From assembly GCA_038209995.1 (NCBI GenBank), contig JBBQXD010000003.1, forward strand, positions 89,079-153,078: a stretch of DNA of 64,000 nt, in the 5' to 3' direction. Each line of letters opens with the position of its first letter. Positions within the stretch are counted from its first letter, which is position 1. The notes beneath the pieces are model-generated. The model searched no databases and was not told the DNA's origin. It saw only the letters and a list, made by a program, of their open reading frames with translations. Position numbers and translations under genes: made by a program. This stretch comes from Candidatus Limnocylindria bacterium. Its GTDB lineage: Bacteria > Chloroflexota > Limnocylindria > QHBO01. Positions 2,522 through 6,346 of this stretch are shown here, one piece after another.

Positions 2522-2841
2522 GGCGGCAGCGTAGCCGACGGGGCACGTCGGCAAACTGCCAGGCCACCGCCGATCGTCCGGATTGACGGCGGGACCCGCC
2601 CGCGCCTAGAGCCCCATTCCCTCAGACACTTGGCGCAGATCTACCTGAATGACAACAAGCGTTGGATCCGCCAACAGATGCGTGAACGAAAGATCATCGT
2701 TGACATCGGTCCAACAAAGTCTACCGACTCGATCGCCAGCATCTACTATTGGATGGAGTACTCGGTCACGATGGGCTACCTGGGGGTCATCCGCGCGTGG
2801 GGATGCACCAGGCGTCGCCTCGTGAGGAGGTCGCATCGACG

Positions 2842-3315
2842 ATGAGCCGGCCGGCGAACACTCCTTTGATTTTCTCCGATGTGTGCATTCAGGCGGCGCT
2901 CTTGGCCCGGGGAGACTGGATGGGCGTCGACGAACTCATGATCGACTACGAATACATCGCGCGGTCGACGCCATCGTTCGACAGTCTCAGCTTTGGAATC
3001 GCGCGGCTGGTCGCGAACGGCTTGGTGCAGGTCCGCGATGAGCCGAGTGAATCGTTCATGATGAGAGCCACGCAACGTACGTTTCGCACCGCTACGCCCG
3101 GTGTGGGCGTGATCGATTTCGCGATTCAATTGGCCCACGAGCTCGGAGTGACCCTCGACGAAAATCGGGAGGAAGATCGTTCTCATGGACGTGTCGACGG
3201 CCTAACCTACACGGAATACCAGAAGGCGGCGGGCGCCGGCGGCGAGTGGAAACATCTCGTTGACTCGCGCCTCCCGGGGGCACGCGGGCGCGACGGGCGC
3301 CCCCGCGAGGGCTGA
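2842..3315 (+). CDS. hypothetical protein (lower-GC islet)
   Basis: ATG preceded by GAGGAGG at the correct spacing. Local GC is visibly lower than in flanking genes. No recognisable motif. Confidence 0.4.
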   Translation: MSRPANTPLIFSDVCIQAALLARGDWMGVDELMIDYEYIARSTPSFDSLSFGIARLVANGLVQVRDEPSESFMMRATQRTFRTATPGVGVIDFAIQLAHELGVTLDENREEDRSHGRVDGLTYTEYQKAAGAGGEWKHLVDSRLPGARGRDGRPREG

Positions 3316-3463
3316 TCATGGTGGCACGGAAGGGCTCGCCGTGGCCGTGGCTTGTCGGCGGCGGTGGAGCGGGGGCTCTCTGGTGGCTCGCAAAGGGACT
3401 CGCGCCACTCTGCGGCCTGGGTGCCCCCGTCTGCGCGTGGGCGCTTTGAGCCCCGGAGCCCCA

Positions 3464-4153
3464 ATGAGCAGAAGTGTCCGCATCGTCGGGAGCCCGTCGA
3501 GTTGGCTCGTGATGCTGGAATTGCTCAGCCTCGATGGGGTCAGACCGTTCTGGTCACGGCTCAGCATCCGAGTGCGCCGCCAGCGTGAGCTTCAATCGAT
3601 GCTCCGCGACATGGTGCTCAAGCTTCGCGCGGCCCATGCCCGTCGCAATCGCGCCGCGATGTCTCGTGAGATCATTGCCGGACTGGAGCGCATCCGTCAG
3701 GAGATCTCAAGTCCAGCGGCCGAATCGATCGTGCGGCTTCGTGACCTCGAGGAACGATGGATGGTGCGCCCCGGTCGTGATTGGATCGGTGCTCTGTGGC
3801 TGTACGTCTACCAGCCCCGCAGCCAAGACACGTTGTCGTCCGGCATTCGGCCACAGATCCGGCGCTTGATCAAAGCTCGACTGGCCAGTGACCTGTGGCT
3901 CGATGAGACTGCTGCTGCGCTGTTCCCCGCGAAGAGCACGTGGGACGCTGAAATCGTCGAATCTAGATTCGTGGGCGGCGGACCGGATGCAATGGCTAAC
4001 GCCCTTCGAGAGTTACTCGAAGCGAGGGCGTATGCTTCCTTGCGCCGCGCCCTCAGACAGCACCTCAAAGGGACCGAGCGAGAGGCGTTGCGATCATGGG
4101 CGGTCACGTACGCGCGTGAGGACGGGGTGCGACCGGAGTTGCCACGTCTCTGA
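3464..4153 (+). CDS. hypothetical protein (lower-GC islet)
   Basis: 229-aa ORF starting MSRSVRIVGSP and rich in Arg/Leu. No recognisable motif. The track ORF 3260..4153 is trimmed to the internal ATG. Confidence 0.4.
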   Translation: MSRSVRIVGSPSSWLVMLELLSLDGVRPFWSRLSIRVRRQRELQSMLRDMVLKLRAAHARRNRAAMSREIIAGLERIRQEISSPAAESIVRLRDLEERWMVRPGRDWIGALWLYVYQPRSQDTLSSGIRPQIRRLIKARLASDLWLDETAAALFPAKSTWDAEIVESRFVGGGPDAMANALRELLEARAYASLRRALRQHLKGTEREALRSWAVTYAREDGVRPELPRL

Positions 4154-4169
4154 ATGGTCAAGGCCCCCG

Positions 4170-4745
4170 GCCGGCGCCGCCACCTGCGCCAGCCCAAACC
4201 TCACCCACGACTCCGCCGGCCGCACCGCGACCTGGAACGGCTGGACGTTCGGGTATGACGCCGACGGCCGGATGGTGAGCGCCTGCAAGAGTCCCACCGG
4301 CGCGCCGCGCTACGACACGGTGACCTTCGCCTATGACGGCGCCGGCCATAGGCACCCAGATCAGGGCGACCTCCGCCGCGGGTGCGGTCGCCACGACCGC
4401 TTTCGGCTACGCGGGCGCCGCGATCACCTCCGAGACGCTGACCGACGCATCCCACCGTCGGGCACTGTGGTGCGGCGCTACGCCGTCGACGGCGACGGGT
4501 CGATCGTGAAGGTCAGCATCCCGGGCGGCGAACCCGAGGCCGGTGACTGCCTCGTCACCTGGAACTGCCACGGCGACGCGCTCAACCTGCCGCGCCTCAA
4601 CGCCGACGGCACCACCACCCTCGCCAACAGCTACGCCTATTCATCAGGGGTGCGCCGACGACGTTCACCGACAACGGCATCGGCGACCTCGGCTTCCGCT
4701 TCCTGTACGTCGGCCGCCACGACGTGCAGTGGGACAATCCGTTAG
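4170..4745 (+). pseudogene. RHS/YD-repeat protein remnant (frameshifted, ends in an in-frame TAG)
   Basis: YD-repeat matches: TWNGWTFGYDADGRMVSA, YDTVTFAYDGAG, VRRYAVDGDGSIVKVSIPGGE, TLANSYAYSS. Alternate frames carry further YD-like text (AFGYAGAAITSETLTD; GFRFLYVGRHDVQWDNPLGL). The frame is broken by at least two shifts and a TAG at 4743-4745. Confidence 0.55.
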
Positions 4746-4763
4746 GGCTCGGCCTGGCCTTAC

Positions 4764-5324
4764 ATGCACGCCCGCCACTACGCGCCGGCGCTGGGACGGT
4801 TCCTGCAGCCTGACCCGGCTCGGCTGGAATCGAATAGTTACGGCTATGCCCGAGAAAATCCATTGACGAGGATGGATGCCAGCGGAACGGAGAGTTGGAC
4901 ACCGAACTCCTGGGAGTGGTCCGCTTGCTTCAAGTATCCGATCGCATGCGCCAGGTGGATGCGCGCCTCCTTCCTGGCACTGGTCGCAACCAGGACCATC
5001 TCGAGCGAGCGGCAACGCAATGCCATGAGACACTGCATCTGGAACTGCCTCATGACGGAGTCAATGAGGGCCTCGTGGGCGAATCTCTGGGCATACCTGC
5101 ACGAGGCTGGCGGTCCATTCCAACCGTTGGATACGCGTGTCGACCTCCACAATAACCGCGTAGGCGTGCTGTTCGGGCAGCAGGCCGGATTCTGGTTCTC
5201 GGGTCTTCCATGGGCGGCTGGCTTTTGCGAGGGCGTATGGAGGCGGGGACGGCTCTGGTATGTGGAATACAACAGAGTGGTCCGCACGTCCCTCGGAGTT
5301 AATGTGCCCAACGGTGCGCGCTAG
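4764..5324 (+). CDS. RHS C-terminal tip: core-end motif plus variable putative toxin domain (orphan)
   Basis: Same frame as the upstream remnant. Begins within the RHS core-end consensus (Y)MHARHYAPALGRFLQPDPARLESNSYGYARENPLTRMDASG. This is followed by about 140 aa of lower-GC sequence with conserved-looking His/Asp/Asn residues (AMRHCIWNCLM, AYLHEAGGP, DTRVDLHNNRVG). Confidence 0.6.
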   Translation: MHARHYAPALGRFLQPDPARLESNSYGYARENPLTRMDASGTESWTPNSWEWSACFKYPIACARWMRASFLALVATRTISSERQRNAMRHCIWNCLMTESMRASWANLWAYLHEAGGPFQPLDTRVDLHNNRVGVLFGQQAGFWFSGLPWAAGFCEGVWRRGRLWYVEYNRVVRTSLGVNVPNGAR

Positions 5325-5343
5325 GTAAATCGGCACAAAGACG

Positions 5344-5793
5344 ATGTTGAAGCAGATCGGGCTCGACCGGATCGTCCGGGCAGTTGTTCTCGTCGAAGTC
5401 ATCGGTATCATCGTGCTGGCTGGCTCGATCTTGTTCGATCCTCCTCCCCCGTACCGCACCGACATCGAGCGAGGGGTTTGGACCCTGATCAGCATTGACG
5501 GCCACGTTCAGCCGCCACCCGCACCACAGCTTGCTTTCCGAGGCGACGGCATGACTTGGACGAGCGACTGCCAAACGATCACCGGGGATGCGGTTCGCGA
5601 CAGTGACGGATCGATGATGCTCATTGGTGGCTTTCGGGTGCTGGCTGCTCGATGTTCACCTCAGCAAGACGCCGCCGAAAGGGCGCTCTTGGACGCGCTC
5701 GCGACTACCGAAACGTGGAGCGTCGAGACTGAGGACCTCATCGTGCTCCGCGGGGGTCGACACTCCATCACGCTGGCCCGGATCCCATCCTGA
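5344..5793 (+). CDS. membrane-anchored META/HslJ-like domain protein; candidate immunity protein for the upstream RHS tip
   Basis: Starts 20 nt after the tip stop. N-terminal TM helix (IVRAVVLVEVIGIIVLAGSILF), then a META-like pattern (WTLISIDG ... GSMMLIGGFRVLAARCSPQQ ... ETWSVETEDLIVLRGG). Lower GC. Confidence 0.5.
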   Translation: MLKQIGLDRIVRAVVLVEVIGIIVLAGSILFDPPPPYRTDIERGVWTLISIDGHVQPPPAPQLAFRGDGMTWTSDCQTITGDAVRDSDGSMMLIGGFRVLAARCSPQQDAAERALLDALATTETWSVETEDLIVLRGGRHSITLARIPS

Positions 5794-5802
5794 GCTGCCA
5801 GC

Positions 5803-6243
5803 GTGGGTCGCTCCTATCCCGGACAGCGCATAACGTTGCCGGATACGGTCGGCCGCCCGCCTCGTGACGCACGCCTCTCGGGCCGTGAGGCTTGGAAGGC
5901 TGCCGCTCTGCCAACTGAGCGGCGCGTCTCGCCTGATTTGGGGCGCATAACGATCATCCTCGCCAACCCGTCGAAGCCAGAAAGGCCCACCGCGGGCACC
6001 ACGATCCAAGAGCAGACGCGACAGTGCCTCGCGAACATCGCCGCCATCCTCAAGGCGGCCAGCAGCTCGATGGAGCAGGTCGTGAGCGCCACGTTCATCC
6101 TGCGCCGGCCTGAGGAACTCGCCGGCATGAACGAGGAGTTGGCGCGCTGGTTCCCGGTCGACCCGCCGGCCCGCCAGGGCGCGAAGGACCCGCTCGAGGT
6201 CGGCGACGCCCTCATCTCGATCGCGGCCATCGCGGTGACCTGA
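5803..6243 (+). CDS. ridA: RidA/YjgF/TdcF family (reactive enamine/imine deaminase)
   Basis: Aligns by eye to RidA over EQTRQCLANIAAILKAASSSMEQVVSATFIL ... ARWFP ... PARQGAKDPLEVGDALISIAAIAV. GTG start. Confidence 0.6.
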   Translation: MGRSYPGQRITLPDTVGRPPRDARLSGREAWKAAALPTERRVSPDLGRITIILANPSKPERPTAGTTIQEQTRQCLANIAAILKAASSSMEQVVSATFILRRPEELAGMNEELARWFPVDPPARQGAKDPLEVGDALISIAAIAVT

Positions 6244-6346
6244 GCCAGCGTCTCGCGTCACCCCGGCAGCGTCCCGGGGCCGGTGTATCGTATCGGCCTT
6301 CCCGTGGATGCCAGCCGTCCCGACCAGCTTCGGAGGACCGATCTTC

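Follow-up and report, generated by a model that had tools for sequence, protein, structure and literature searches.

What is an rhs fragment with an apparently intact toxin tip doing in a segment that contains no rhs gene? The question is raised by an accessory islet between positions 2606 and 5829 of the 64-kb stretch of DNA analysed here (the window), which carries such a fragment together with a small membrane-anchored gene. A preliminary description of the window had recognized the layout of an orphan rhs toxin/immunity module and had proposed that the cassette was either displaced from an rhs locus elsewhere or was a stand-alone remnant able to recombine into one. The layout was recovered in our analysis as an Rhs core followed by a DUF6973 toxin tip and a META-domain gene, with no rhs body in the window. 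The islet is likely to be a decayed remnant of an Rhs polymorphic-toxin locus; of the earlier proposal, the remnant part stands, while displacement appears less likely than decay in place. Orphan Rhs toxin/immunity relics are a known kind of element, and the novelty is modest: an immunity assignment and a link of the tip with BteO and Wnt-like toxins. The features on which this explanation is based are listed below, with positions counted from the first nucleotide of the window.

2606..5829, no strand: the whole accessory islet, with low GC content and non-host codon usage, not found in syntenic relatives
4170..4763, plus strand: 5'-truncated rhs fragment of YD repeats and core, a pseudogene of about 198 codons, delimited by frameshift-aware alignment and hidden Markov models (HMMs)
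4764..4889, plus strand: Rhs core end (YMHARHYAPALGRFLQPDP...MDASGT), matched by TIGR03696, with both autoproteolysis aspartates present
4890..5324, plus strand: toxin tip of 144 amino acids (aa), DUF6973, BteO/Min-Wnt-like and all-alpha, with four conserved Cys
5344..5793, plus strand: candidate immunity gene of 149 aa with a transmembrane (TM) anchor and a META domain (Pfam, hydropathy) and two conserved Cys

The truncated rhs gene and its core end

Rhs homology started at 4170, 16 nt past the end of the preceding gene, h2. Frameshift-aware protein-to-DNA alignment against four homologues (P0001, P0002, P0026 and P0071) showed that the fragment is colinear with all four over about 240 residues. 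Four indels were located, +1 near 4353, -1 near 4456, -1 near 4650 and +1 near 4760; in the entry frame, a TAG stop is present at 4743-4745. The approximately 190 aa of YD repeats that had been called frameshifted and stopped in the preliminary description are thus represented by about 198 codons with these four indels and the TAG. The frame-corrected product of 386 aa gave one match to RHS_repeat and matches to TIGR03696 (E = 8e-14) and DUF6973, so that the RHS/YD assignment also holds at the level of HMM profiles. With this frame-corrected protein 275 Rhs proteins were matched, the best with 69% identity.

Taken in pairs (+1/-1 and -1/+1), the indels compensate each other and keep the overall frame, and related contigs of long-read metagenome-assembled genomes, e.g. 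L082, contain many fragmented genes. Both observations would be expected if the frameshifts were a sequencing or assembly artefact and the fragment in reality formed one open orphan open reading frame (ORF) of 390 aa. However, an independent Logan assembly contig of run SRR19962013 was 100% identical over 3644 bp, all four indel sites included; the other genes of the window are intact, with many ORFs of more than 700 aa; and inspection of the sequence contexts placed three of the four indels outside homopolymer runs. For these reasons the frameshifts were accepted as real rather than as assembly noise, with a slight residual doubt. A net-zero pairing is, moreover, expected by chance in one of four cases, and a repaired ORF would still be short of about 1450 N-terminal residues, which leaves an artefact very improbable. 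Programmed frameshifting was rejected because the contexts of the four sites differ and because one out-of-frame block contains a stop.

No other Rhs/YD sequence was detected by tblastn in the window of 64 kb, nor did three full-length relatives have any match there with their N-terminal 1450-1650 aa, which agrees with the earlier remark that a full-length rhs body is missing. Compared with a full-length Rhs toxin, the fragment has neither the N-terminal secretion/trafficking domain nor a long YD shell in one frame, while the core domain with a DPxG-type autoproteolysis motif is present.

The core end itself is contained in the ORF 4764-5324, which matched TIGR03696 with E = 1e-11 over profile positions 33-75 of 76. 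It retains 'RFLQPDP' and 'MDASG', and the family-invariant columns are kept. The canonical DPxGL reads 'DASGT' here; DAAG, DACG and DSCG also occur in the family, in which only D and G are invariant. The core-end motif previously described as intact is accordingly a true TIGR03696 match, with the correction that DASGT takes the place of DPxGL. At 4764 the ATG encodes the Met that is conserved in 'YMHARHY'; no Shine-Dalgarno sequence precedes it. The clean core end ahead of the tip extends over about 130 nt (4761-4889).

The toxin tip

The variable C-terminal domain, previously put at about 140 aa, comprises the 144 aa past the 'MDASG' motif. The ORF 4764-5324 matched DUF6973 (PF22322) with E = 1e-16 and 60.6 bits against a cutoff of 27, and the tip shows the motifs RH(90)CxW, H(113)E(114) and D(127)xHN(130)N(131)xxG(134). 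In an alignment of 19 DUF6973 homologues the residues C55, C62, A87, H90, W93, E114, D127, N130, N131, G134, C155 and L164 were invariant. All of them are present in the tip of the window, as was confirmed with an alignment of 12 tips. Searches of the four islet proteins against PHROGs and PADLOC gave nothing informative; the only match, a weak one in PHROGs (E = 6.5e-4, unknown function), fell within the part of the tip ORF that encodes the Rhs core end.

The nearest solved homologue is BteO (9uu0), with an E value of 3e-13 for a profile of the tip only, and the 9uu0 segments 'NAFRHTLWQ', 'HE' and 'IDLLNNQIGR' were aligned to the family motifs. BteO is a Bacteroides fragilis type VI secretion system (T6SS) effector that shows toxicity in the periplasm alone and leads to cell-wall defects, elongation, blebbing and lysis; it has been reported to be non-enzymatic and to bind the C-terminal domains of OmpA (PMC12541434). 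All polar motif residues that do not vary among the Chloroflexota Rhs tips (RH, W, HE, D, NN, GR) recur within residues 412-503 of BteO (9uu0). The shared residues suggest a conserved catalytic or ligand pocket, which the published BteO mechanism does not explain.

The tip also shows the fold by which the Min-Wnt/SAW clade is recognized, a helical lipocone core related to Wnt. The SAA-Wnt clade consists of soluble toxin tips with a His (H2), a Glu (H3), an Asp (H4) and an sNxxGR motif, which occur in polymorphic toxins, RHS-borne ones included (PMC12419801). According to prediction, these tips cleave or exchange phosphate-linked lipid head groups, as TelC does on lipid II, and do so from the cell exterior; their immunity proteins are all TM proteins or lipoproteins (PMC12419801). 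In comparison with the Min-Wnt motif, H90, E114, D127 and N130-N131-R-V-G134 are invariant in the DUF6973 family, and the window has V for the motif Arg. The term 'DUF6973' gave no match in literature searches; DUF6973 is named neither in PMC12419801 nor in its supplements, and the supplements are also without META and HslJ. Membership in the lipocone clade is therefore our own assignment, and DUF6973 would, by fold and motifs, fit the SAA-Wnt clade of lipocone toxins. A toxin of this type would be expected to act on the outer face of the membrane, its probable target being a lipid carrier (lipid II or undecaprenyl diphosphate, for example) or a lipid head group. The conserved Cys in the tip and in the META proteins appear to fit an extracytoplasmic location.

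The META protein as candidate immunity protein

The META gene starts 19 nt past the stop of the tip. Its product has an N-terminal hydrophobic TM helix (residues 13-31, Kyte-Doolittle 2.72) and matched the Pfam META domain (PF03724) with E = 4e-8 and 33.6 bits against a cutoff of 24. It is the tightly coupled small membrane-anchored gene of the preliminary description, where this gene and the tip had been left unnamed; they can now be given as a META immunity candidate and a BteO/Min-Wnt-like DUF6973 tip.

The genes directly 3' of 12 DUF6973 tips, the window included, were compared, and all 12 encode TM-anchored proteins or lipoproteins. A META protein with a TM or lipobox anchor was found behind the tip in the window and at the loci L029 and L016, the three matching each other with E values of 1e-8 to 3e-14. 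META scores at L029 and L016 were 27.6 and 23.7 bits, the latter being borderline against the cutoff of 24, and the META gene of L016 adjoins a full-length Rhs protein of 1855 aa with a DUF6973 tip. Other downstream genes encode small multi-TM proteins (L005, L090, L091) or further lipoproteins and anchored proteins (L002, L019, L089). The repeated adjacency of tip and META gene, together with the anchored and extracytoplasmic-looking partners, supports META as one immunity type, and the META protein is presumably one of the immunity proteins that match the DUF6973 tip. Nothing linking a META domain with an immunity protein was found in literature searches.

The same comparison yielded a second anchored family behind tips, so far unannotated (L006 2379-2930, L032 11096-11551 and L030 10887-11453), whose members matched each other with E values of 6e-6 to 1e-13 and had no Pfam match. 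It may be a further candidate immunity family. Stand-alone META homologues were seen at L004 and L092. At L004 (1150-3784) the closest META homologue is preceded by a 570-aa protein with no Pfam match and by a 327-aa CW_binding_2 protein, which might belong to another secreted toxin system relying on this type of immunity. A metagenome scan with the META alignment returned one uninformative contig of 1.5 kb.

The ORF 4764-5324 opens with an ATG and is intact, and internal expression of an orphan toxin, which would then form a toxin-antitoxin-like module in the producer, has been documented for a Salmonella orphan Rhs (PMC7043789). For the tip of the window such a role is hardly credible. The ATG is the core Met of YMHARHY without a Shine-Dalgarno sequence, there is no promoter-like site, and the conserved Cys, the exclusively membrane-anchored partners and the periplasm-only toxicity of BteO (PMC12541434) all speak against it. 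Lying outside the membrane, the META domain could not neutralize a cytoplasmic toxin.

A second toxin remnant upstream of h2

The part of the islet upstream of the rhs fragment contains three further features.

2842..3315, plus strand: h1, a soluble hypothetical protein of 157 aa, an ORFan, with a GC content at third codon positions (GC3) of 0.74 and GAGGAGG upstream
3267..3449, plus strand: CT-A, the last 60 codons and the TGA of a second Rhs toxin C-terminus, found by tblastn and supported by shuffles
3464..4153, plus strand: h2, a soluble helical protein of 229 aa, by its position the presumptive immunity gene of the lost toxin A

When a third frame of 3267-3443 was compared with the last 50 residues of P0001, the closest Rhs homologue, 56% identity over 59 aa was obtained (tblastn E = 9e-12). 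The match covers a hydrophobic, Cys-containing tail in an open frame of 61 codons, which ends with the TGA at 3447-3449 and has a stop immediately upstream in the same frame. The match was not reported under the default low-complexity filtering and composition-based statistics of BLAST, and the main support is therefore the test with composition-preserving shuffles, which gave z = 14.7 for P0001, 7.0 for P0060 and 6.1 for P0057. A tail of the CT-A type also ends the Rhs toxins of L021 and L065.

The genes on either side of CT-A, h1 and h2, had been described as motif-less hypotheticals, and no match to either was found in four HMM libraries (Pfam, NCBIfam, PHROGs and PADLOC). h1 formed a cluster of one member, and its single-sequence AlphaFold2 model was unusable, with a predicted local distance difference test (pLDDT) score of 37. 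The last approximately 16 codons of h1 overlap the CT-A remnant in another frame, as is expected at a deletion junction, and h1 was probably fused there. The start of h2 lies 14 nt past the CT-A stop. Among 1.84 billion representatives h2 had one homologue, P0247 (29% identity, E = 9e-6), located at L092 beside a transposase fragment; a META lipoprotein belonging to the same subfamily as that of the window lies at a distance of 2 kb. In this position h2 is the presumptive immunity gene of the lost toxin A.

Read from left to right, the islet thus consists of h1, the deletion junction, the tail of toxin A, h2, the truncated rhs B with its DUF6973 tip, and the META gene.

Composition and limits of the islet

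Windowed GC content fell from 0.75-0.78 at 1800-2600 to 0.58-0.60 at 2600-3200 and was 0.60-0.62 at 4800-5800; in the YD part (4000-4800) it was still 0.69-0.72. Host-like ORFs, taken as stop-to-stop ORFs of at least 100 aa with a GC3 of at least 0.80, covered 88% of the window. The largest uncovered gap, 2606-5793 (3188 bp, GC content 0.637 against 0.707 for the whole window), coincides almost exactly with the GC drop at 2560-5800 that had marked the segment in the preliminary description. Low GC content and non-host GC3 were thus both confirmed, within sharp boundaries. The right limit at 5829 is the point where 80% nucleotide identity to the META locus L004 stops.

For individual genes, GC3 was 0.92-0.96 in the flanks and a host-like 0.89-0.92 in the rhs core segments, against 0.69-0.75 in the core end plus tip, 0.71 in the META gene, 0.74 in h1 and 0.70 in h2. 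GC3 steps from 0.9 to 0.7 at the core-tip junction. A host-like core next to a tip and an immunity gene of foreign appearance is a mosaic well known from Rhs loci.

No tRNA gene was found in a scan of the window. The islet borders showed only short chance repeats, with no att-like or insertion sequence (IS) ends in a repeat search, and no integrase; no transposase was found within the islet.

Rearrangement of the site

Syntenic relatives were available in which the CN-hydrolase is 96% (L082) or 90% (L086, L087) identical to that of the window. All three have the order decarboxylase (minus strand), AAA_28 (minus strand) and CN-hydrolase (plus strand) with short spacers only, and no h1, h2, Rhs, tip, META or RidA-like sequence was found at the syntenic site. 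The segment regarded as accessory from the start is thus missing from these relatives, and the part of the window without a counterpart extends from about 2555 to 6346. The order of AAA_28 (534-1139) and the pyridoxal phosphate (PLP)-dependent decarboxylase (1145-2554) in the window is swapped with respect to L082 (7871-9888) and L086 (7676-9658), where AAA_28 occupies the interval between decarboxylase and CN-hydrolase, i.e. the place of the islet in the window. The swapped order indicates that the site was rearranged and not merely hit by an insertion.

Next to the islet, an ORF at 5803-6243 is RidA-like (Ribonuc_L-PSP), but its match to the Pfam profile of 121 positions sets in only at position 37, and the N-terminal third appears degenerate. 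The GC3 of this ORF, 0.84, is host-like, yet none of the syntenic relatives has it; possibly it represents a fragment of a gene that came with the same rearrangement. The following CN-hydrolase ORF (295 aa, start at 6308) is probably 13 codons too long, its homologues having 282 aa and a start 'MARIV' that corresponds to 6347 of the window. In L082 (ENA ERZ25039536 contig_23880) many genes are fragmented, e.g. a split BPD_transp_1 and a split Na_H_Exchanger, and the CN-hydrolase frame continues into a glyoxalase domain. Indel errors of long reads seem to be the cause, and gene lengths from that data set need to be taken with care.

The Rhs family and its parentless orphans

A genome scan with the Rhs family gave 77 loci, mostly from Chloroflexota (Chloroflexia and Limnocylindrales) with a few from Actinomycetota; the locus of the window was not among them. 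Full-length genes of 1850-2270 aa were present at L011-L018, L020, L022 and L027, together with many truncated copies of 220-600 aa. A DUF6531 domain and an N-terminus resembling a signal peptide were found in the full-length proteins of L016 and L020; in that of L016 (1855 aa), DUF6531 is followed by a YD shell of about 1400 aa, the Rhs core and a DUF6973 tip. Among 21 truncated relatives, at least 11 lacked an Rhs body within flanks of up to 10 kb, which makes parentless orphans an ordinary occurrence in this mostly Chloroflexota family. The islet shows the truncated rhs with core, the distinct tip and the adjacent immunity gene of an orphan module; a full-length rhs upstream of it is missing within the 64 kb, and only the 60-codon tail remains.

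IS110, IS3 or Transposase_mut genes adjoin several orphans (L003 2-787, L088 752-1834, L091 332-2096), and the h2/META islet of L092 (3724-4122) lies directly beside a transposase gene. These positions hint that IS activity truncates or moves DUF6973 Rhs cassettes.

Proposed origin and fate of the locus

By analogy with characterized Rhs toxins, the protein of intact relatives of the L016 type would be exported with the tip encapsulated in the shell, and the tip would be freed by aspartyl autoproteolysis at the core end. The freed tip would then act on the outer face of the neighbour's membrane, where a membrane-anchored immunity protein, here META, would neutralize the incoming toxin on the same side of the membrane. 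In the islet, the export and shell part has been lost and the 198-codon core piece has become a pseudogene. The tip is intact in sequence, but is probably silent and undeliverable because it has no start context, signal peptide or shell. As orphan immunity genes, the META gene and perhaps h2 have probably been retained for protection against neighbours' toxins of this type. The parent rhs would formerly have been located at this site and then have been deleted. The tail of toxin A upstream of h2 argues for such a decayed rhs locus with its main gene deleted, rather than for a displaced cassette, and, apart from the deleted parent, the succession of toxin A tail, immunity A, orphan B and immunity B appears to be the classic one.

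The islet could alternatively be a silent but usable reserve, whose tip and immunity gene would enter a full-length rhs in another part of the genome by recombination at the shared core end and so replace the toxin of that gene. Strong conservation of the core end is seen throughout the family (e.g. YMHARHYxPxLGRFLQPDP), several rhs loci and distant orphans occur per related genome (e.g. L016/L041 and L023/L030), the tip and the immunity gene are intact, and displacement of tips by orphan cassettes is established for the rhs genes of Escherichia coli and Salmonella (PMC3150448). However, the homology arm contains four frameshifts and a stop, so that an in-frame chimera could form only via the approximately 130 nt at 4761-4889, and the best core match found had only 69% protein identity. 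We regard a usable reserve as rather unlikely. The recombination-ready unit of the preliminary description did not hold up, since a core arm with four frameshifts and a stop is not intact.

Some observations weigh against the proposed origin as a decayed toxin locus with META and h2 as immunity genes. The non-enzymatic action reported for BteO (PMC12541434) conflicts with the enzymatic prediction for the tip. A scan of the islet gave no promoter-like site, and terminators were at chance level. h2 showed no similarity (z < 1) to the immunity proteins behind the P0001-type toxins of L021 and L065, which are themselves mutually homologous; as only 60 codons of toxin A are left, the role of h2 rests on its position and one co-occurrence. 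META was found behind only three of the 12 DUF6973 tips, and the tips do not group by immunity type in their similarity. P0122 (L004), with 76% aa identity the closest META homologue, follows a CW_binding_2 gene, and neither Rhs nor DUF6973 sequence is present nearby, so that META genes of this type also occur alone.

META domains are widespread lipoprotein modules (HslJ type). This, and the finding that neither the closest homologue (76%) nor the more distant one at L092 has an adjacent toxin, would be compatible with an ordinary envelope gene that lies beside the tip by coincidence. Against a coincidence, two other genomes have META proteins of the same subfamily directly behind DUF6973 tips, in one case the tip of a full-length Rhs. 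The gene is separated from the tip by 19 nt, shares its non-host GC3 and is missing from the syntenic relatives, and at L092 META co-occurs with the sole known h2 homologue. A chance neighbour is thus improbable, and META is retained as the candidate immunity gene of the decayed locus.

A broader interpretation is put forward as tentative, and we consider it slightly less probable than its opposite. The META-type anchored proteins would be an unrecognized immunity family against DUF6973 lipocone toxins. The toxins would be enzymes acting on an envelope lipid carrier and not mere OmpA binders, as the same H/E/D/NN residues from Bacteroides to Chloroflexota would suggest. Proteins like h2 would form a second immunity type that travels in toxin-less immunity islets.

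Comparison with known systems

The islet itself is a routine relic of interbacterial warfare. Few immunity proteins are known for the Wnt-like lipocone toxins, and the islet adds a concrete candidate pair, DUF6973 with META. The strict conservation of the putative catalytic residues between this Chloroflexota-type tip and BteO bears on the disagreement between a lipid-head-group enzyme (PMC12419801) and an OmpA binder (PMC12541434). The locus also documents that Rhs loci decay into parentless tip/immunity islets, often beside IS, in a poorly studied and mostly uncultured lineage, and is relevant to the persistence of immunity genes after the loss of the weapon.

OmpA, the reported target of BteO, would be lacking in a monoderm host. 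In the BteO-BtiO pair of B. fragilis GA3 (PDB 9UU0), BteO differs from an Rhs tip in being a stand-alone T6SS cargo that has a TM helix at its N-terminus, and BtiO mimics the C-terminal domain of OmpA and is not a META protein (PMC12541434). Compared with the Min-Wnt/SAA-Wnt lipocone toxins and TelC-TipC, the tip of the window has V and not R after the motif Gly, and META is not among the immunity folds listed for them (Burroughs, Nicastro and Aravind 2025, PMC12419801).

The islet shares with the orphan rhs-CT/rhsI modules of Enterobacteria the 5'-truncated rhs with a partial core, a variable tip and a coupled immunity gene, a GC content of tip and immunity gene unlike that of the core, and the array of tail A, immunity A, orphan B and immunity B (Poole et al. 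2011, PMC3150448). It differs from them in that no full-length rhs is found upstream, where 60 codons are left, and in that the core is frameshifted. Also, the host is probably a member of the Chloroflexota or of a neighbouring group and not of the Proteobacteria, and the full-length relatives look Sec-exported (signal-peptide-like N-terminus, DUF6531) and not T6SS-linked. A C-terminal displacement model for rhs is said to go back to Jackson et al. 2009.

WapA of Bacillus subtilis has a Sec-type N-terminus, a YD shell, a C-terminal toxin and a downstream immunity gene, a layout that the full-length relatives of the islet resemble. The tips of WapA are tRNases that act in the cytoplasm and are neutralized by cytoplasmic immunity proteins, whereas the toxin and the immunity protein described here both appear to be extracytoplasmic.

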